NCBI GenBank assembly: GCA_965203365.1
Contig: OZ241878.1
Coordinates: 3,598,962-3,662,961 of the forward strand
DNA from: Candidatus Poriferihabitaceae bacterium
GTDB taxonomy: Bacteria > Pseudomonadota > Gammaproteobacteria > Arenicellales > Poriferihabitantaceae
Direction of reading: 5' to 3'
DNA: 64,000 nt
The notes under the pieces were generated by a model, which was not told the origin of the DNA, did no database searches, and worked only from the letters and a program-made list of their open reading frames with translations. Shown here in pieces: positions 21,114-39,426 of this stretch. Both the position numbers and the translations under genes were made by a program. Position 1 is the first letter of the stretch, and each line of letters starts with the position of its first letter.

Positions 21114-21443
21114 GGGTGTCGTGCTGTCTCGTTCACCGATTATGGCCAATAATTTTACGTGGAATGTCAGAGTGTATCAAAGAGTATCTCACATCAACGT
21201 ATCTCCTGCCCGCAGATTTCAGCCAGAACTAAAGTCACTCTTCTGGAGATATTCCTGCGGTTCCCGCACAAGGTCAGCTCATCGGACGCCCATAAGCATG
21301 TCAAACAATTTTGAGGTCAATCCAGCCTGCCGAGATGAGGGAATTGCGAATGCCTCCTTGGTGTCATCATTTGCCTGTGGGTCTCCGTGTGCTATTGGGT
21401 CGCAGGCAAGTGGTCGTCGTCAACATGTGGGGTAGCTTGAGAA

Positions 21444-21899
21444 TTAACAGCGCAGGGTATGGACATTGACGCGAATCGGGAATTGCGCGATGATTAGGTG
21501 CTCCCGGTGTTGGTGATCGTATGAATGTACACCATCAACATCATGCAGAATGGTCATGGATCCGCCCGCCAGAACGGCTTGAATTAGATGCTTGAAATAG
21601 ATTATGACTGTCCACCGCAGGCGATGGTATTGGGCATGCGACATCGGTCGTACCTGACCTCCAGCGACAACGGTCTCGGCGAGAGCTTTTTTTCGAACCT
21701 GATACAGCGGTACCAAAAGGTTCAGTTTAATATCGATGGAAACCAGTGGGCCTGCAAAATAAGAAAAGTCAAAACGATAGGTGAGCTTGGGGAGCGGCAA
21801 ACATGCCGGTAGATAACAGTCCCAAAAACAAGGTGAAGCCTCTTGGTGGTGCACGTTTCTATCGTTGTGCGCTTCAAGTAAACCCGTATCACTATGCAC
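21444..21899 (-). other. Unresolved ORF(s) at the left edge of the low-GC islet
   Basis: A 151-aa minus ORF overlaps both a 74-aa plus ORF (21588..21812) and the first 97 nt of the PHP-ATPase gene. Its C-terminal third (RLRWTVIIYFKH...AGGSMTILHD...HLIIAQFP..VNVHTL) faintly recalls a 2OG-Fe(II) oxygenase strand pattern. I see no HxD and it ends early. Confidence 0.2.
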
Positions 21900-24505
21900 A
21901 GACTTATCAGGGGCAAGATACTCAAGATGACGATATCAGTTACGCACAGAAGATTGTCGATGAAGCCGTAAAGCTGGGTATTGAGGTGCTCGCCATCACA
22001 GATCACAATAACGTAGATGGTGTCGCAGCCTTTCGATCAGCGTCGCTCAATTATCCGGTTCATATCTTCCCAGGTTTCGAGTTGTGTTCATCAGAGGGTG
22101 TACACTTGTTGTGCTTGTACTCGCCAGATATAGGCGATGATCAACTTGGTCGCTACCTTGGAGAATGTGGCATCCGAGATACGAATCCATCTGCGCAGAT
22201 CGCAACCAAGTCGTTTGCTGATATTCTTCAGACTGTTGACAGCCAAGGGGGAATTACTATTGCGGCGCACGTAACGAACAATAGCGGCTTATTCAAAGTT
22301 TTATCAGGACAACCAAGAATTCGCGCATGGCAAGACAAGAATCTTCTGTCGATCCAGATCCCAGGTGTCATTGAGGATCTTCCGCAGGACATTCGGCAAA
22401 TTGTAGAGAATAAAAACATAGACTACATTCGTTCCCACGCCCCGGAAAACGGCATCGGAATCGCAGTCTTGAATGCCAAGGACATCACGGGGCCTGATCA
22501 ACTCGACGATCCGTCCGCAACATGCTGGATCAAGATGCAAGAAGTTACTATCGATGGGTTGCGCCAGGCATTTCTAGACCCTGGTTCGCGTGTGCGATTG
22601 AACACCAAGAAAAGAAGATTTGAACCCGACGAGCACATGGAGATAGTGTCTGTTGGATGGGATGGTGGATTTCTTGACGGGATCATCGTGCATCTCAATC
22701 CGAACTTGAATGTCCTAGTAGGCGGACGGGGGGCTGGCAAGTCAACAGTTGTAGAAAGCATTCGTAGCGCATTGGGTCTTGAGCCTGTTGGTGTCGAGGC
22801 ACAAAAGGCGCATGATGGTATCGTGCGCCAAGTCCTGCGCAATGGCACAAAGATATCGCTAGTGGTGCGTGTACACCGCCCCATAATGCGCGAGTATCGA
22901 ATCGAGCGAACGATTCCCAATCCGCCGCTGGTTCGTGCAGCGGATGGCACGGTGTTGCAGAGTGCGCCAACGGACATTCTTCCGAGAGTCGAAGCCTACG
23001 GTCAGCACGAAATTTCTGAGATTTCGAGAAGTCGCGAAAAGCTTACCCGGTTGCTTGATCGTTTTGTTGCTCGCGATGAGTCTCTCATGCGTCGTCGGAT
23101 GTCGGTGGTTCGTGATCTCGCGAAGAGTCGTAGCGCCATATGTGATGCTCGTGCCGAGATTGCGATAATTGAAGAGCGTCTGGCCGCGCTACCCGGGTTG
23201 GAAGAAATGTTGAAGCGGTTCCAGGAAGTGGGTCTCGAAGAACGACTGCGGGAGCAAAGTGCCTTGGTACGAGAGGAGCGGGTGTTTGGCTCTATTCCTC
23301 AACGTTTGGCACCATTCGAGGAGGTACTTGAGATTCTGAAAAGAGAGTTGCCGATCGACCGTACATTCTTGTCGGAAAAGGCGATTAGGGAGTTACCGGC
23401 CCGAGACATCATTTCCCGGACGACCGATATACTTGTGGAATTGGAAGCGAGTGTAAAGCATATTGTTGATAGACTAGAACAGGTGTTGATTCGCGCGAAT
23501 GATGGCGTCAAAGACATACAGGCGATATGGGATACGCGACGGCAACGGGTACAGACAGAGTACGAAAGAATCTTGCGCGAGCTGCAGAAATCGCGCGTGG
23601 ACGGAGAAGAGTTCATTCGTCTTCGACGACAAATCGAGGAGTTGCGACCTCTTCAGGAACGTCTTGCATTGTTGCAACGATTGGAAAACGAACGCATGAA
23701 TCAACGCCGTACGCTACTTGCCGAGTGGGAAGACATCAAAGCTGCGGAGTTTCGCACTCTGAATAAGGCGGCAAGAAAGGTAAGTGGACAGCTTCGCAAT
23801 CGCGTGCAGGTGGAGGTGACGATCGCCGGAAATCGTGAGGTGTTCTTCAAGCTGTTGCGTGACGAAATCGGGGGAAGAATGTCGGAGGCAATCGAAAGCC
23901 TGCGGAACGCTCCTGAGTTGTCGCTCACACAATTCGTCGTTGCATGCCGGTCCGGGGTTGAGGCGCTGCGCAATATTTACGGCATCACACCGGGTCAGGC
24001 GGAGCGGCTCGCGGGTGCTGATACTGACCTTCTCATGCGAATCGAGGAGTTAGAACTGGAGCCGACGACCGTGGTCCGTCTTAATACTGCGGTAGCGGGA
24101 GCACCACCGACATGGCAGCTTTTGGAGGATCTTTCGACTGGTCAGAAGGCAACGGCTGTGCTGCTACTACTGCTCCTCGAATCGGGCGCTCCGCTGATTG
24201 TGGACCAGCCTGAGGATGATCTGGACAATCGCTTTATCACCGAGGGGATCGTTCCGAGGATGCGTGATGAGAAGCAGCGCAGGCAGTTTATCTTCTCGAC
24301 TCACAATGCGAATATTCCCGTACTTGGCGATGCCGAGTTGATTGTCGGACTGTCGGCCGTCGGGGAGGCAGAGAGTGGGCGGGCGCGTATCGCCCCGGAG
24401 CACATGGGATCTATCGACTCTCGACCCGTACGTATGCTCGTGGAAGAGATACTTGAGGGCGGCCGTGAGGCATTCGAGATACGGCGGCGGAAGTATGGGT
24501 TCTGA
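21803..24505 (+). CDS. Fused PHP-domain phosphoesterase + Rad50/SbcC/SMC-like ABC ATPase with long coiled-coil insert (Ppl-like architecture)
   Basis: 900 aa. PHP-like N-terminus (AITDHNNVDG, FPGFELCSSEGVHLLCLY, ITIAAHV). Walker A GGRGAGKST (22721..22747) and Q-loop YGQHE. About 370 aa of charged heptad-like sequence follows. Then signature LSTGQK, Walker B PLIVDQPEDDLD and H-loop FSTHN. Confidence 0.85.
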   Translation: MPVDNSPKNKVKPLGGARFYRCALQVNPYHYAQTYQGQDTQDDDISYAQKIVDEAVKLGIEVLAITDHNNVDGVAAFRSASLNYPVHIFPGFELCSSEGVHLLCLYSPDIGDDQLGRYLGECGIRDTNPSAQIATKSFADILQTVDSQGGITIAAHVTNNSGLFKVLSGQPRIRAWQDKNLLSIQIPGVIEDLPQDIRQIVENKNIDYIRSHAPENGIGIAVLNAKDITGPDQLDDPSATCWIKMQEVTIDGLRQAFLDPGSRVRLNTKKRRFEPDEHMEIVSVGWDGGFLDGIIVHLNPNLNVLVGGRGAGKSTVVESIRSALGLEPVGVEAQKAHDGIVRQVLRNGTKISLVVRVHRPIMREYRIERTIPNPPLVRAADGTVLQSAPTDILPRVEAYGQHEISEISRSREKLTRLLDRFVARDESLMRRRMSVVRDLAKSRSAICDARAEIAIIEERLAALPGLEEMLKRFQEVGLEERLREQSALVREERVFGSIPQRLAPFEEVLEILKRELPIDRTFLSEKAIRELPARDIISRTTDILVELEASVKHIVDRLEQVLIRANDGVKDIQAIWDTRRQRVQTEYERILRELQKSRVDGEEFIRLRRQIEELRPLQERLALLQRLENERMNQRRTLLAEWEDIKAAEFRTLNKAARKVSGQLRNRVQVEVTIAGNREVFFKLLRDEIGGRMSEAIESLRNAPELSLTQFVVACRSGVEALRNIYGITPGQAERLAGADTDLLMRIEELELEPTTVVRLNTAVAGAPPTWQLLEDLSTGQKATAVLLLLLLESGAPLIVDQPEDDLDNRFITEGIVPRMRDEKQRRQFIFSTHNANIPVLGDAELIVGLSAVGEAESGRARIAPEHMGSIDSRPVRMLVEEILEGGREAFEIRRRKYGF

Positions 24506-24508
24506 CTG

Positions 24509-25759
24509 ATGAACAAAATTGAACTACTTGAGCTCATTGCCAATTATGAAGGCTCACGGGTCGAATTTAAGCGCGACGACTGCCGCCCGGAGGATCTTGC
24601 GAGGGAGATGTCCGCGCTCCTGAACCTTGAAGGGGGTGTCATTCTGCTAGGGATAGAGGATGATGGGCAGTTGTCCGGGCTGACCAGAAGTCCCGGGGCG
24701 GCTGAGGAGTGGGTGATGAACGTTGCCCGCGAAAACATCCAGCCGGTCTGCACTCCCATTTGGACGTGTATTGAGATGGGGTGTGGAAAGCGAGTGGGGG
24801 TCATTGAACTGGCTGCTGACAGTCCAGGAAAACCCCACAAAGCCAAGCGAGGCAGGGCTTGGGTCACCTTCAGCCGTGTCGGCAGCACTTCTCGGGAGTC
24901 GACACGTGAGGAAGAAGCTCGGCTCTACCAAGCCGCCCGGGTGATTCGGTACGAGATCAAGGCAGTACCGGATACCGGACTGGAAAGCCTCAACATGGAT
25001 CTCATGGAGAATTACTATCGCGATGTCTTGCAGCGGTCAGTGCCCACTCGATCAGACCTGGAGAGCTGGCGGCAACTCCTGCTCAATTCGGACCTGCTCG
25101 TCACGGAGCAGGATGAACTTCGCGCCACGGTATCCGGGCTGTTGCTGTTTGGCGATAACCCGAACCGTCGTTTGCCACAAGCTGGCGTCACCGCAGTGGC
25201 CTTTCCGGGACCTGAAAAGGAATACAACACGGTTGATGAAGAGCGGATTCGGGGTCCACTGGTCTCACGGGTCTCGCGGCAGGGCAAGGCGTTGGAGAAG
25301 GGCGTGATCGATCGTACGGTTGATTTTGTCAAGCGCAACATGGGTAGTGTCGCGTGGATAGATGGTAGCCGTCGCCGTCGCCAGAAAGCCTTTGCGCTGG
25401 ATGCGGTAAGAGAGGCGGTTGTCAACGCGGTCGTCCATCGTGATTACGCGTTTGAAGGGACCGACATTGAGGTTTCACTGTATGGTGACCGACTGGAAGT
25501 GGTCTCTCCGGGTCGGCTTCCGAACGGAGTGACGGTGGCAAAGATGAGAGAGGGCGTGGTTCGAGTCGCGCGCAATGAGTTGCTCAAGGAAATCCTTCGT
25601 GACTACGGCCATATTGAACACTATGGAATGGGAGTTCGCAATCGGATTATCGAATCGACCCGTCGCCATAACGGGACAGAGCCAGATCTGCAGGAGGATG
25701 AGCATCGTTTTGTCGTGCGCATTTGGAAGGCACGTCGGTCATCTGTAAATCCTCTGTGA
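24509..25759 (+). CDS. Schlafen-like AlbA_2 domain + HATPase_c_4-like protein (COG2865-type), lacking the usual C-terminal wHTH
   Basis: ATG lies 3 nt after the upstream stop. N-terminus LIANYEGSRVEFKRD...LLNLEGGVILLGIEDDG is the AlbA_2 pattern. VREAVVNAVVHRDY...LEVVSPGRLPNG...ARNELLKEIL is the HATPase_c_4 pattern. Confidence 0.85.
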   Translation: MNKIELLELIANYEGSRVEFKRDDCRPEDLAREMSALLNLEGGVILLGIEDDGQLSGLTRSPGAAEEWVMNVARENIQPVCTPIWTCIEMGCGKRVGVIELAADSPGKPHKAKRGRAWVTFSRVGSTSRESTREEEARLYQAARVIRYEIKAVPDTGLESLNMDLMENYYRDVLQRSVPTRSDLESWRQLLLNSDLLVTEQDELRATVSGLLLFGDNPNRRLPQAGVTAVAFPGPEKEYNTVDEERIRGPLVSRVSRQGKALEKGVIDRTVDFVKRNMGSVAWIDGSRRRRQKAFALDAVREAVVNAVVHRDYAFEGTDIEVSLYGDRLEVVSPGRLPNGVTVAKMREGVVRVARNELLKEILRDYGHIEHYGMGVRNRIIESTRRHNGTEPDLQEDEHRFVVRIWKARRSSVNPL

Positions 25760-25870: not shown

Positions 25871-27100
25871 TCAGAAGAGACCGTGTTTTTGCGTCAGGGC
25901 GAACTTGATCGGTAGATTCAGTTCCAGCTGGGCCTTGTGCAGATTGGCGGGGAATGGGGGTAAGGGCCGGGCTCTGGCCAGCATCTTCAGTGCGGCCTGG
26001 TCCAGGCGGTCATCACCGGAACTGACAATCAGTTGGGGGGAGTTCAGACTGCCGTTAGCGAGAATGGTGAGTCGTATGGTCACCACCCCCGTCACGCCGT
26101 TTCGTCTTGCTGCGCGGGGGTAGCGCTTGAAGCGCATCAGGTGGCGGTACAATATATTCAGGTAGCCTCTTTGAGCGGCCGCGATGTCCCCTGTTTCAAC
26201 CTGCGGCCCGATCACCGATGTCGCCGGTTGGTTCGTGTCGTCCGTTGTGGTCACTGATGGAACCCCTTTTCTGGTCGGGTTAGCGGGTATCAGTTGTGTC
26301 AGTTTCTCCAGGACCCCCTGTACCTCTTGGGATGCCGGAATTGATGTCGCGACACTCGTTGCGACTGGTTTTTGTCGGGTGAGCGTGTCGCCCGCTACCG
26401 ATTCCGAGGTGGCGGGCGAAGGGAGACGCGAAACCGATTTGCGGGTAGAAAGGGTAGACACGGCATCCGATGGGCGGGACACCTTGGTCGGCGGAGTCCT
26501 AGGTTGACCCTCAGTCATGACGGGATTGGTGGAGTCAACAGTTTCGACCAACTCGGGAGGGTTTCCATCTGCGGTGCTTGCGCTTAAATGGGGGGTGAGG
26601 AACGCTGGTGGGGGGGGCACCTCAACGGATGGCTCGGTTGCCACGCCTTCCACGGATTTCAGGGTATCAATCACGGTTGGGTCCATCGCAGGCTGGGCGA
26701 GGGACATTCTGACATCTTCAACCGTTAGAGAGTTGTCGGTTGCGGTGTCTGGAAGCAACGTCTGGATGAACGAGCCAGTCGCCGGTCCTGCTTCCACGAC
26801 TTGGGCTGTCGCAACCGATATCGTAGTGGCAATCGCCTCGCTTGATCCCTTCGCAGTGACGGTGGAGACGGGGTTGATCCCAGTCGAGGCAACTGTCGCT
26901 ACCTCCCGAATCACCGAATCCTCGATAGTGGTATCGACCGGTATCTGGCCAGACCCCCGGATGGACACCCTGATCGCCCCGATATCAGCTGACTGGGTGA
27001 CGGGACCGGGGACATATGAAAGCACTGCCGTGAAAAGTCCGGCATGGACACCCAGTGCCGTCACCAGTGCGGTGGCCTTGACTCGTCGGGGAACCAACAT
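25871..27100 (-). CDS. tonB: TonB family energy transducer
   Basis: Start at ATG 27100 (MLVPRRVKATALVTALGVHAGLF anchor). Long Pro/Thr/Ser-rich spacer. C-terminal TonB domain (YPRAARRNGVTGVVTIRLTILANGSL...DDRLDQAALKMLARARPLPPFP). Confidence 0.8.
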   Translation of the reverse strand: MLVPRRVKATALVTALGVHAGLFTAVLSYVPGPVTQSADIGAIRVSIRGSGQIPVDTTIEDSVIREVATVASTGINPVSTVTAKGSSEAIATTISVATAQVVEAGPATGSFIQTLLPDTATDNSLTVEDVRMSLAQPAMDPTVIDTLKSVEGVATEPSVEVPPPPAFLTPHLSASTADGNPPELVETVDSTNPVMTEGQPRTPPTKVSRPSDAVSTLSTRKSVSRLPSPATSESVAGDTLTRQKPVATSVATSIPASQEVQGVLEKLTQLIPANPTRKGVPSVTTTDDTNQPATSVIGPQVETGDIAAAQRGYLNILYRHLMRFKRYPRAARRNGVTGVVTIRLTILANGSLNSPQLIVSSGDDRLDQAALKMLARARPLPPFPANLHKAQLELNLPIKFALTQKHGLF

Positions 27101-27200
27101 CAGCACCGTCCGGGAAAAACAACCCCGAGGTGACTTCCACTGGGATGGGGATCGTCCACCCACACAGCGCTCCGTTTCTGACCAGCCATTTTTCTCAAGG

Positions 27201-28850: not shown

Positions 28851-29672
28851 CTACTGGATAAACGGTACGGTGGTCAGATTGTTCAGTATCAACCCACCCA
28901 GGCATCCCTCCAGGGGTCCCGCCCGATCATGGCAGTCTCGAACATCATTCAGGAGAATGCGCCCGATCACACCACAGGGCAGGTCATCCAGAACGAAAGC
29001 CTGATATCTCGTCTTGCCGGGGGGTAGGAAAGAGACCGGTAAGGCCACGCTTTTCTGGACCACCCCGTCCGTCCCGAAGACCGCGAATTCGAGCTTGAGC
29101 GACTGCAGTTCGCTGGCGCGGTCGTTGTGCAGCACCAGATGGGTTTGGCAACCGTCCGGGCTTGGCTGCAGCTTGTTGAGTTCGAGGTGGATCAGACCGC
29201 TCGGCACAGCCGCTGCTTGCCCCAGGGCGGACAGAGTCAGTGACTGGATAAACGGCACATCGGTACGATTGTTCAGTATCAACCCACTCAGGCATTCCTC
29301 CAGGGGTCCTGCCCGATCATGGCAGTCTCGAACATCATTCAGGAGAATGCGCCCGATCACACCGCAGGGCAGGTCATCCAGAACGAAAGCCTGATATCTC
29401 GTCTTGCCGGGGGGCAGGAAAGAGATCGGTAAGGCCACGCTTTTCTGGACCACCCCGTCCGTCCCGAAGACCGCGAATTCGAGCTTGAGCGACTGCAGTT
29501 CGCTGGCGCGGTCGTTGTGCAGCACCAGATGGGTTTGGCAACCGTCCGGGCTTGGTTGCAGCTTGTTGAGTTCGAGGTGGATCGTATTGCTTGGCTCGGC
29601 GATTGCCATGTTCATGGCCAAGATAGCCAGAGTGACATGAAGGGCAATGGCTGGCCTGAGATATGGTGTCAT
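28851..29672 (-). CDS. Secreted protein made of two near-identical ~130-aa Cys-containing modules; first gene of the exbB-exbD-exbD-tonB operon
   Basis: ORF 28851..29729. Likely start is ATG 29672, giving the signal peptide MTPYLRPAIALHVTLAILAMNMAIA/EP. No family recognised. Confidence 0.6.
   Translation of the reverse strand: MTPYLRPAIALHVTLAILAMNMAIAEPSNTIHLELNKLQPSPDGCQTHLVLHNDRASELQSLKLEFAVFGTDGVVQKSVALPISFLPPGKTRYQAFVLDDLPCGVIGRILLNDVRDCHDRAGPLEECLSGLILNNRTDVPFIQSLTLSALGQAAAVPSGLIHLELNKLQPSPDGCQTHLVLHNDRASELQSLKLEFAVFGTDGVVQKSVALPVSFLPPGKTRYQAFVLDDLPCGVIGRILLNDVRDCHDRAGPLEGCLGGLILNNLTTVPFIQ
28853..29582. repeat. Tandem direct duplication, period 390 bp, about 97% or higher identity
   Basis: ACTGGATAAACGG...GAGGTGGATC recurs at 28853 and 29243. 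Antisense ORFs at 29014 and 29404 start with the same peptide (MPGGRKE.GKATLFW). Only 5 aa differ between the protein modules. Confidence 0.9.
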
Positions 29673-29999
29673 CTGTCCTGGGGCAGAAGGGCGTATGGGT
29701 TGAGAGTGGTTGGCCAGCACTGCAGTCAAATCGAAGTTTGAATGATATCCGGCGGCTGCCGTTCACGGCAACCAAATGTCGTATTTTGCCGGATTCTTCG
29801 GTCAGTCAACATGTCCGTTGGCGGTCTTTTTCTGATCAATGTGTCGTACTTGACGAAGAGATCCGATGTTCATCTGAGCTGGGTATGGAGGTCAGGACAT
29901 GGCTCATCCAACCGAATCCGCCAATTATGGAGGGCCACATATCAAGAGGCGGGTCACGATACTCTACCGGGCTGGAAATCCAGCCATGTGATTGCAAAT

Positions 30000-38011: not shown

Positions 38012-39426
38012 ATGTCAGGGGGGTGCATGACGGCAAACCGAATTGCAGCGATGGCCGCGGCGGGCGAATCCGAGACTTTGGAATTCAAAGCCACGACCGG
38101 TGCACGCCGCGAGGCGATGAGGACGGTCTGCGCCATGCTCAACCAGCAGGGCGGTCAGGTGCTGTTCGGTGTTTCGCCGGAGGGCCATGCGACCGGGCAG
38201 CAGGTGAGCGAGCCGACCATCGAGGAACTGAGTGCGGAGACTGCCAGGATCGAGCCACCGGTTTTCCCAACCGTTGAGCGGTTTCGGCTAGCAAATGCTC
38301 GCGAGGTTGTCATCATCTCTGTCAGTTAGGGGGCCACGAAACCCTATCAATACCGAGGCACAGCCTATTGTCGCGTGGGGAACACGACCCGAGCGATGAG
38401 TGTCGATGAGTATAACCGCGTGCTTTTCGAGCGCATGCACAGCGAAAGGCGCTGGGAGAACGAGCCTGCGACCGGATGGTCGATTGAGGACCTGGATGTG
38501 GTGGAAATCCGTAATACCGTCGCCGAAGCGGTGAGGATCGGTCGCCTCAACGAACCCGGCCATCGGGAACCGGAGCATTTACTACGTGGACTTGGGCTGC
38601 TCCGCGATGGTGTTCTGGTCCGAGCGGCGGCTGTTCTGTTTGGCAACACCGAACGGCTCGAGTTCGAGATGCCCCAGTGTCTGCTCCGAGTGGCTCGTTT
38701 CCGGGGAATCGATCGTACCGAGTTCCTCGACAATCGACAGTTCAACGGCAATGCCTTCATGCTTCTCTCCAGCGCGGAGCGCTTTCTGCGCGAAAGCCTT
38801 GCCTATCGCCAGCCGTTTCGAACCAGGCCAGATTCAGCGCATCGACGAACCACTGTACCCGCCCTTGTCAACACGAGAAGCGCTAGCGAATGCCCTATGC
38901 CCATCGCGACTACTCGATCGGAGGCGGTTCCGTCGGTCTGGCAGTTTACGACGACCGCTTGGAAGTGACGTCGACGGGGAGCCTGCATTTCGGACTGACC
39001 CCCGAGAAACTTTTTGAACAGCATGAGTCAAAACCTTGGAACCCGCTGATCGCCCGTACGTTCTATCGACGAGGACTCATCGAGGAATGGGGCCGCGGTA
39101 CGCTCAAGATGGCGGAACTGGCGATTTCTGCAGGCCTGCCGCTTCCCGAAATTGAAGATGTCGGCGATTGTGTCACTGTACGATTCCACCTAGGCGGGTT
39201 CAAGCCGACCCTGCGTAACGGATTTCATGTGACCCGACGACAAAGAGCGATTCTTACCCTGCTATATCAGGAAGATGGATTGTCGCTAGGCGAAATTCAT
39301 TCACAATTGCCTTTGGACACAACTGTACGTCAGGTGAGAAGAGCACTGACGGGTTTAAGAGAACGCGGACTGGCCGCTTCCACCGGGCGCGGGCGTGCCG
39401 CGCGGTGGAAGCTGTTAAGAGAATAG
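38012..39426 (+). pseudogene. AlbA_2/HATPase_c_4/wHTH (COG2865-type) gene, disrupted
   Basis: Three pieces. 38012..38329 (ESETLEFKATTG...LNQQGGQVLFGV) ends in a stop. 38375..38968 is the middle piece. 38890..39426 (HRDYSIGGGSVGLAVYDDRLEVTSTG...wHTH RQRAILTLL..GLSLGEI) is in another frame. That is one nonsense change and at least one frameshift. Confidence 0.8.

Follow-up and report, generated by a model that had tools for sequence, protein, structure and literature searches.

Photorhabdus laumondii DJC carries a temperature restriction locus (TRL), in which trlR (79 aa), trlF (annotated as a histidinol phosphatase) and trlG form a putative operon; the product of trlG joins an AlbA_2 to a HATPase_c_4 domain and had been mis-annotated as recG (Hapeshi et al. 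2020, PMC7554251). Operon expression rises on temperature upshift, all spontaneous mutants that grow at 36 °C (~20 suppressor mutations) are altered in trlG and none in the twice-larger trlF, and deletion of the whole operon gives the same heat-tolerant phenotype as the trlG mutations (PMC7554251). TRL distribution is patchy even within species (e.g., 12 of 1,218 V. cholerae genomes), a copy on the Yersinia plasmid pYR3 adjoins type I restriction-modification (R-M) genes, and the closest TrlG homolog outside Photorhabdus is that of V. parahaemolyticus (PMC7554251). Here, we describe a 64,000-nucleotide stretch of DNA (the window) from a Candidatus Poriferihabitaceae bacterium (contig OZ241878.1) in which a gene for a 900-aa PHP-ATPase protein (21803..24505, + strand) is followed by one for a 416-aa AlbA_2 + HATPase_c_4 protein (24509..25759, + strand). 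An earlier note on this DNA had proposed the pair as a defence module and had supposed the pairing to be undescribed. The second point is wrong: judged by its sequence, the pair is the trlF-trlG core of TRL, for which an NCBIfam TrlF model and RefSeq naming also exist. We therefore call the two genes trlF and trlG.

Each of the two proteins also has relatives with known anti-phage activity. Ppl is reported to be a single-stranded DNA 3'-5' exonuclease whose PHP and NTPase domains are inhibited by bound nucleoside triphosphates, and its action requires nucleotide depletion plus 3'-OH ends (PMC12904381); a phage counter-protein against Ppl has been reported. For the prokaryotic Schlafen (pSlfn) tRNases, Ex4(E/D)xK has been defined as the catalytic motif; fusions to a histidine-kinase-like domain (the HisKinase class) are the commonest pSlfn architecture, at 34% of 5,930, and protection has been validated for single-gene fusions to DUF262 or to Ig-like domains (Perez Taboada et al. 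2026, PMC13056530). A survey of BREX systems found genes for Schlafen-"minimal histidine kinase" proteins embedded in BREX and DUF499 ('Hma') loci of at least 1,017 taxa. Neither that survey nor the bacterial Schlafen work mentions a PHP-ATPase partner for the Schlafen-HisKinase proteins, and we found no report of the combination of AlbA_2, HATPase_c_4 and PHP in the non-subscription literature.

Both open reading frames are intact, and the public gene calls for the window agree with them. The 900-aa protein matches the NCBIfam model NF045780, "TrlF family AAA-like ATPase", at 507.7 bits (cut-off 350) and from end to end (protein residues 16-899 on profile positions 2-944 of 944). It also shows the kinship with Ppl to which the earlier note had pointed: the NCBIfam Ppl model NF042955 matches at 187.3 bits (E = 3.6e-55), below its equivalog cut-off of 1000, and the PADLOC Ppl profile (PDLC02208) matches in two stretches at 128 bits (E = 8.7e-38). 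The protein falls below the cut-off of the NCBIfam Spaf_1101 family model. These profile scores place window TrlF in the TrlF family, as a sister of the anti-phage protein Ppl. Both families are large, with at least 3,433 homologs of TrlF and at least 2,922 of TrlG.

Along its whole length, window TrlG shares 41% identity with the partner of TrlF from the Vibrio parahaemolyticus plasmid pLH80-1. With this protein as a proxy for TrlG and the NCBIfam model for TrlF, the window pair is probably orthologous to Photorhabdus TrlF and TrlG. Through the same proxy, only S16, V35 and A36 among the Photorhabdus suppressor sites could be placed on window TrlG, because beyond about residue 70 the numberings no longer correspond; two of these sites, S16 and A36, are invariant among TrlG proteins. 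The Photorhabdus operon and the window share the two-gene core and its order, a PHP-ATPase followed by an AlbA_2 + HATPase_c_4 protein of ~410 aa. They differ in that trlR lies upstream in Photorhabdus and is absent from the window, as from most of the 80 loci analysed below, and in the host, which for the window has a guanine-plus-cytosine (GC) content of ~56%.

TrlF begins with a PHP-like domain (21848..22507, +; about aa 16-235), assigned from Pfam, the alignment of homologs, profile searches, Foldseek and an AlphaFold2 (AF2) model. The Pfam PHP match itself is weak (residues 49-97; 23.1 bits, under the cut-off of 26.4); the assignment is upheld by NF045780, by a profile match to RNase AM (9etk, E = 7.7e-6) and by weak Foldseek matches to RNase AM and to Pol III PHP domains. 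Residues Q25, N27, H68, E93, H101, H165, N224 and D227 are conserved among 79 homologs, in which most of the PHP ligands do not vary. The earlier note had remarked that the usual N-terminal HxH (PHP motif I) is not obvious, and indeed Q25-x-N27 stands in its place, invariant in the 79-sequence alignment. This QxN is common to the TrlG-paired and the solo members of the main TrlF clade, and a deeper-branching member from a Klebsiella IncC plasmid retains H-L-H.

The rest of TrlF is a split SMC/Rad50-like ABC ATPase with a coiled-coil insert. The N-terminal half of the head (22655..23032, +) contains the Walker A motif GGRGAGKST (K313) and a Q-loop, GQHE, at residues 400-403; the C-terminal half (24050..24502, +) contains the signature LSTGQK, the Walker B motif DQPEDDLD and the H-loop STHN. 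All five motifs listed in the earlier note are thus present, and they are invariant or nearly so in the 79 homologs (Walker A as GGRGxGKST). Pfam SMC_N and AAA_23 match around Walker A (residues 294-342; SMC_N 28.4 bits, cut-off 40), and AAA_21 matches residues 771-838 (E = 1.1e-9). The insert (23078..23791, +; about aa 426-663) is modelled by AF2 as a helical hairpin with long helices at residues 426-460, 478-515, 534-597 and 601-663 (predicted local distance difference test score, pLDDT, 80-94). In the model, the PHP region (about residues 40-180) has a pLDDT of 70-87 and the ATPase head is poor. Foldseek gave weak matches to the heads and arms of SMC, JetC, MukB and Rad50 and no Ppl structure, and these matches confirm domain classes only; a profile search of Protein Data Bank sequences gave no close solved structure, only RNase AM-type PHP. 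The earlier note had also seen SbcCD/Mre11-Rad50 logic in this architecture. Reading the sequence of residues 426-663, we found no CxxC zinc hook and a single cysteine (C447), and TrlF scores far below the NCBIfam models Rad50_Sulf (21 bits, cut-off 1000) and SMC_prok_A (16.4 bits, cut-off 729). By these measures, the likeness to SbcCD/Mre11-Rad50 is an analogy and not family membership.

TrlG has a Schlafen/AlbA_2 nuclease-type domain (24548..24898, +; aa 14-130), matched by PF04326 (SLFN_AlbA_2) at 43.9 bits (cut-off 25.3), and a GHKL-type ATP-binding domain (25457..25720, +; aa 317-404), matched by PF13749 (HATPase_c_4) at 72.1 bits (cut-off 26). The Ex4ExK motif is intact (E14-G-S-R-V-E19-F-K21); among TrlG homologs, E14, S16 and K21 do not vary, and conservation of E19 is at least 90%. 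An N-box-like RExxxNAxxHRDY (residues 301-313) precedes the HATPase_c_4 domain and is conserved in homologs, as are the motifs SPGxLPN, RN and GxG. Pfam finds no C-terminal extension beyond HATPase_c_4, so the protein has no winged helix-turn-helix (wHTH) tail, as the earlier note had said. Sequence profiles gave no close solved structure beyond the structural-genomics protein 3lmm (E = 1e-8) and a marginal match to SLFN12; the AF2 model is poor (pLDDT 51), and Foldseek of this low-confidence model placed 3lmm first (E = 5e-13), followed by histidine-kinase (HK853) and PDK catalytic domains. These features make window TrlG a prokaryotic Schlafen of the HisKinase class.

The window also contains a dead paralog of trlG, which the earlier note had picked out. 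This pseudogene (38012..39426, +) encodes AlbA_2, HATPase_c_4 and a C-terminal part that is probably a wHTH, is frameshifted, and lies in pieces in three frames (38012..38329, 38375..38968 and 38890..39426). It represents the stand-alone, 'regulator-like' form of the TrlG architecture.

When one genome per species was scanned, 359 relatives of TrlF came to light, and we analysed the best 80 loci (59-84% identity), which were drawn from more than 15 phyla or classes, including Chloroflexota, Latescibacterota, Gemmatimonadota, Acidobacteriota, Planctomycetota, Verrucomicrobiota, Nitrospirota and several proteobacterial classes. The earlier note had proposed counting how often an AlbA_2/HATPase_c_4 gene comes directly after the ATPase gene; in 78 of the 80 loci, the next gene downstream of trlF encodes a full-length TrlG homolog (40-85% identity), at a median gap of 8 nt and, in 25 of them, at exactly 3 nt. 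The two exceptions (L028 and L035) have no downstream trlG, and a Schlafen-HATPase_c_4 protein and a methylase are encoded directly upstream of trlF. Pairwise divergences of TrlF and TrlG correlate (Mantel r = 0.66), a value that none of 2000 permutations reached. Thus, trlF and trlG are near-obligately adjacent and co-diverging. TrlF is 60-84% identical across distant phyla, which points to horizontal transfer.

Some loci vary this arrangement. In the two exceptions (L028, 3123..7974; L035, 3102..7974), the order is a 629-aa AlbA_2-HATPase_c_4-MarR/wHTH-Fic_C protein, a methylase of ~1000 aa (N6_N4_Mtase) and trlF. Two Nitrospirales loci (L068, 10721..13742; L070, 10699..13975) have two tandem TrlG-like genes after trlF and then HmaB, the tandem products being 44% and 63% identical to window TrlG.

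Some of these pairs lie within defence operons. Clustering of the flanking open reading frames placed trlFG inside an Hma (DUF499-centred) operon in about one quarter to one third of the 80 loci, in the order HmaA-TrlF-TrlG-HmaB-HmaC or HmaB-TrlF-TrlG-HmaC. Next to or around the pair, HmaA was detected in 20, HmaB in 22 and HmaC in 17 of the 80 loci, and the PADLOC Hma matches are very strong (e.g., 1541 bits for HmaB). On Vibrio pLH80-1, a BREX-1 operon holds trlFG between its pglX and pglZ genes, and on the IncC plasmid pNDM-KN the pair separates hsdR from hsdS in a type I R-M operon. At the remaining loci, a family scan of 130 neighbouring proteins found that a few are PglX, BrxA, DruA, Avs3, MADS or type I R-M proteins. 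TrlF is also common on plasmids: 1,144 plasmid records have a match, 825 of them conjugative plasmids, and RefSeq names plasmid homologs "TrlF family AAA-like ATPase". Phage genomes gave 7 weak TrlF matches only, which indicates that the gene is not typically phage-borne.

Two of these operons have features of their own. In L042 (11966..15325), the HmaC protein (a DUF499 ATPase) encoded after trlG bears an N-terminal Swt1-like HEPN domain, and the operon thus encodes three putative nucleases, in the NOV_C domain of HmaA, the HEPN domain and the Schlafen domain. The pNDM-KN locus (L084, 4881..7523; from K. pneumoniae) encodes a divergent TrlF member with the classical PHP H-x-H; its trlF overlaps both hsdR and the gene for its TrlG-like partner, and the type I R-M operon sits on a Tn7-like element of this clinically important IncC NDM plasmid.

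We read the window locus as an intact stand-alone copy of the horizontally mobile trlF-trlG pair and, with a probability of roughly 0.6, as a two-gene anti-phage or anti-mobile-element module of the abortive-infection type. TrlG would act as the toxic effector; since it keeps the Ex4ExK catalytic motif, its Schlafen domain is probably a nuclease that cleaves tRNA or other RNA, and its GHKL-type domain probably gates this activity. TrlF would be a Ppl-like sensor that controls or restrains TrlG, and possibly a second effector or nuclease; by surveying DNA ends, nucleotide levels or both, it would decide when TrlG is licensed. Published genetics show that TrlG function is required for the growth arrest of Photorhabdus at 36 °C (PMC7554251). 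That TrlG is itself the agent of the arrest is suggested by the lack of suppressors in trlF, because the larger gene would have gathered them if it were needed. From these data we infer a phage-defence role, an RNA target and which of the two proteins would sense and which would act.

A bolder form of this model, which we hold only tentatively and think less likely than not to survive in full, is that TrlFG is a very widespread abortive-infection system in which TrlG, a Schlafen tRNase, is licensed by TrlF once the latter detects phage DNA ends or a depletion of nucleotides. If true, it would explain the failure of the commonest Schlafen class to defend without its partner, and also the recurrent insertion of the pair into Hma, BREX and type I R-M operons, where it would act as a back-up layer. 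The arrest of Photorhabdus at 36 °C would then be autoimmune firing of TrlG, perhaps set off by a heat-induced prophage or by DNA damage.

Several observations weigh against a defence role or against parts of the proposed mechanism. The sole experimental phenotype of TrlFG is temperature restriction and not immunity (PMC7554251), and Schlafen-HisKinase proteins assayed as single genes gave no protection (PMC13056530). We found no phage or plasmid challenge of any TrlFG pair in the searchable, non-subscription literature; the defence module proposed in the earlier note gains from the linkage of the genes and their repeated presence in Hma, BREX and type I R-M operons, while defence itself stays an inference. 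The window pair sits among housekeeping genes, with no adjoining defence gene, mobile-element marker or flanking repeat, and many of the remaining loci likewise adjoin ordinary metabolic genes. Solo TrlF genes occur on Xanthomonas and Staphylococcus plasmids, and because some plasmids hold TrlF without TrlG, TrlF can presumably work alone. The nuclease activity of TrlF is uncertain because PHP motif I reads QxN and not HxH, and the structure models are mediocre (mean pLDDT 66 for TrlF and 51 for TrlG).

We considered four other explanations, each of which is made less likely by the evidence of mobility and embedding or by the Photorhabdus genetics. TrlFG could be mainly a physiological stress or growth-control module that arrests growth at a non-permissive temperature or under another stress, in keeping with how the Photorhabdus study presented it, and has no anti-phage role. 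The only experimental data are of this kind, namely the growth of trlG and operon mutants at 36 °C and the induction by upshift (PMC7554251), and housekeeping genes surround the window copy and many others. We nevertheless regard this as unlikely: the distribution is patchy within species, as in V. cholerae (12 of 1,218 genomes; PMC7554251), identity is 60-84% across unrelated phyla, and the pair is frequent on conjugative plasmids and inserted in Hma, BREX and R-M operons. Such patchiness, transfer and embedding are typical of defence cargo and not of a conserved thermoregulator, and a heat-triggered arrest could itself be the autoimmunity of a defence system. The same plasmids and large operons, whose loss the pair could penalise, would suit an addiction (toxin-antitoxin-like) module in which TrlF restrains the toxin TrlG and the two stabilise their carriers. 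This would agree with the tight coupling of the genes and with suppressors that are all in trlG and none in trlF, as expected if loss of TrlF alone is lethal or brings no relief (PMC7554251). However, a 900-aa protein with conserved ATPase and PHP residues goes far beyond what a simple antitoxin needs, TrlF is found alone on plasmids, and the whole operon can be deleted without harm (PMC7554251), so that addiction as the main role seems rather improbable; toxin-antitoxin-like behaviour and abortive infection are in any case not mutually exclusive.

The remaining two explanations centre on TrlF. It could be a sufficient effector, a Ppl-like exonuclease that destroys phage DNA, with TrlG as a non-catalytic regulator or an accessory DNA- or RNA-binding sensor. 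Ppl functions as a single gene, solo TrlF genes exist, wHTH-bearing relatives of TrlG are commonly annotated as regulators, and HisKinase-class Schlafens alone gave no defence (PMC13056530). Yet the twice-larger trlF should then have taken many of the ~20 suppressors and took none (PMC7554251), PHP motif I of TrlF is degenerate, and TrlG keeps Ex4ExK and has lost the wHTH; we therefore consider it doubtful that TrlF acts as the only effector. A housekeeping DNA-repair complex like SbcCD/Mre11-Rad50 is suggested by the pairing of an SMC/Rad50-like ATPase with a phosphoesterase, by the Gene Ontology term for double-strand break repair that RefSeq gives to one homolog, and by the weak Foldseek matches to Rad50 and SMC. 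This is very improbable indeed: TrlF scores 21 bits with the Rad50 model (cut-off 1000) and lacks a zinc hook, it occurs sporadically as a result of horizontal transfer, its genomic context varies without synteny, and its partner is of Schlafen type and not a repair factor.

The pair itself is not new, since it has a name, an NCBIfam model and a published phenotype. What is of interest is the putative link among three lines of work that appear unconnected in searchable papers: TRL of Photorhabdus, the anti-phage exonuclease Ppl and the bacterial Schlafen defence nucleases. Should TrlFG prove to be a defence system, the defence catalogue would gain a common two-gene member with thousands of homologs, many of them on conjugative plasmids including IncC resistance plasmids, and there would be a partner-dependent mechanism for the largest bacterial Schlafen class. 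The temperature phenotype that limits the host range of an insect pathogen would then appear as immune self-toxicity.

At the window locus, the coding regions and the 3-nt spacing are as the earlier note gave them. The junction (24503..24511, +) reads TTC TGA CTG ATG, with the trlF stop at 24503-24505, a CTG spacer and the trlG ATG at 24509; so tight a junction probably reflects translational coupling. The upstream intergenic region (21150..21802, +; GC 0.495) contains one sigma-70-like site (21466..21494) and a 74-aa open reading frame; 2 promoter-like sites were seen where 3.2 are expected, which is not evidence of function. The 74-aa frame (21588..21812, +) overlaps the trlF start by 10 nt and has no Pfam match. 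It shows weak similarity in the two closest loci only and is not conserved upstream of trlF in the 80 loci, so we rejected it as TrlR or as another operon component; it is unlikely to be a gene, and window trlF has no TrlR regulator gene upstream.

The pair is flanked by FMO-like and epimerase/SDR genes on one side and by tonB-exbD-exbD-exbB on the other, and no integrase or insertion sequence lies within 5 kb of it; the earlier note had likewise given SDR and tonB as neighbours and the lack of an integrase or insertion sequence. We also found no flanking direct or inverted repeats, no terminator-like site, and no Hma, BREX or type I R-M core genes on both sides; the embedding is seen at other loci only. 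The earlier note had called the region a visibly lower-GC islet of 4.6 kb. GC is indeed lower (0.532 for the trlFG region, 0.565 for the window), but the description was overstated, since 6.7% of same-size windows have a GC that is no higher; only the intergenic stretch before trlF and the part that encodes PHP are low (0.48-0.50), and trlG is average (0.564). We therefore rejected the islet as a sign of recent transfer, for which it is weak.

Two neighbouring genes have unusual products. The TonB homolog (25871..27163, -) is unusually long, at 430 aa, with an extended low-complexity region rich in Ser, Thr, Pro and Val ahead of the TonB_C domain. Adjoining the exbB-exbD-tonB cluster, a 292-aa open reading frame (28851..29729, -) consists of two nearly identical halves of ~135 aa, in which IHLELNKLQPSPDGCQTHLVLHNDRASELQSLKLEFAVFGTDGVVQKSVALP is present twice, and is an internal tandem duplication.

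TrlFG can be compared with several known systems. PARIS consists of AriA, an ABC ATPase sensor, and AriB, a Toprim tRNase effector. The likeness to TrlFG is a functional analogy only, of a large ABC ATPase beside a nuclease that would shut down translation: the PADLOC AriA profile matches the AAA_21-type C-terminal half of window TrlF at E = 8e-8, and PARIS too occurs embedded in BREX loci, but its effector is a Toprim protein with no homology to the Schlafen protein TrlG, and TrlF differs from AriA in having its own PHP domain and a long coiled coil. With SbcCD/Mre11-Rad50 and with JetC of Wadjet, TrlF shares a split ABC head, an antiparallel coiled coil and a metal-dependent phosphoesterase. 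In those systems, however, the nuclease is of calcineurin or Toprim type, whereas in TrlF it is a PHP domain fused in one chain, without a zinc hook. TrlG shares with the HisKinase class of pSlfns both the Schlafen Ex4(E/D)xK domain and the histidine-kinase-like ATPase domain; the validated pSlfns are single-gene systems, whereas TrlG has an obligate ATPase-PHP partner. Finally, Ppl (Gao et al. 2020) has the same overall architecture as window TrlF, an N-terminal PHP domain followed by an ATPase. Ppl acts as a single gene, while the TrlF clade is almost always paired with TrlG, and by analogy the Ppl mechanism would be the best template for how TrlF works.

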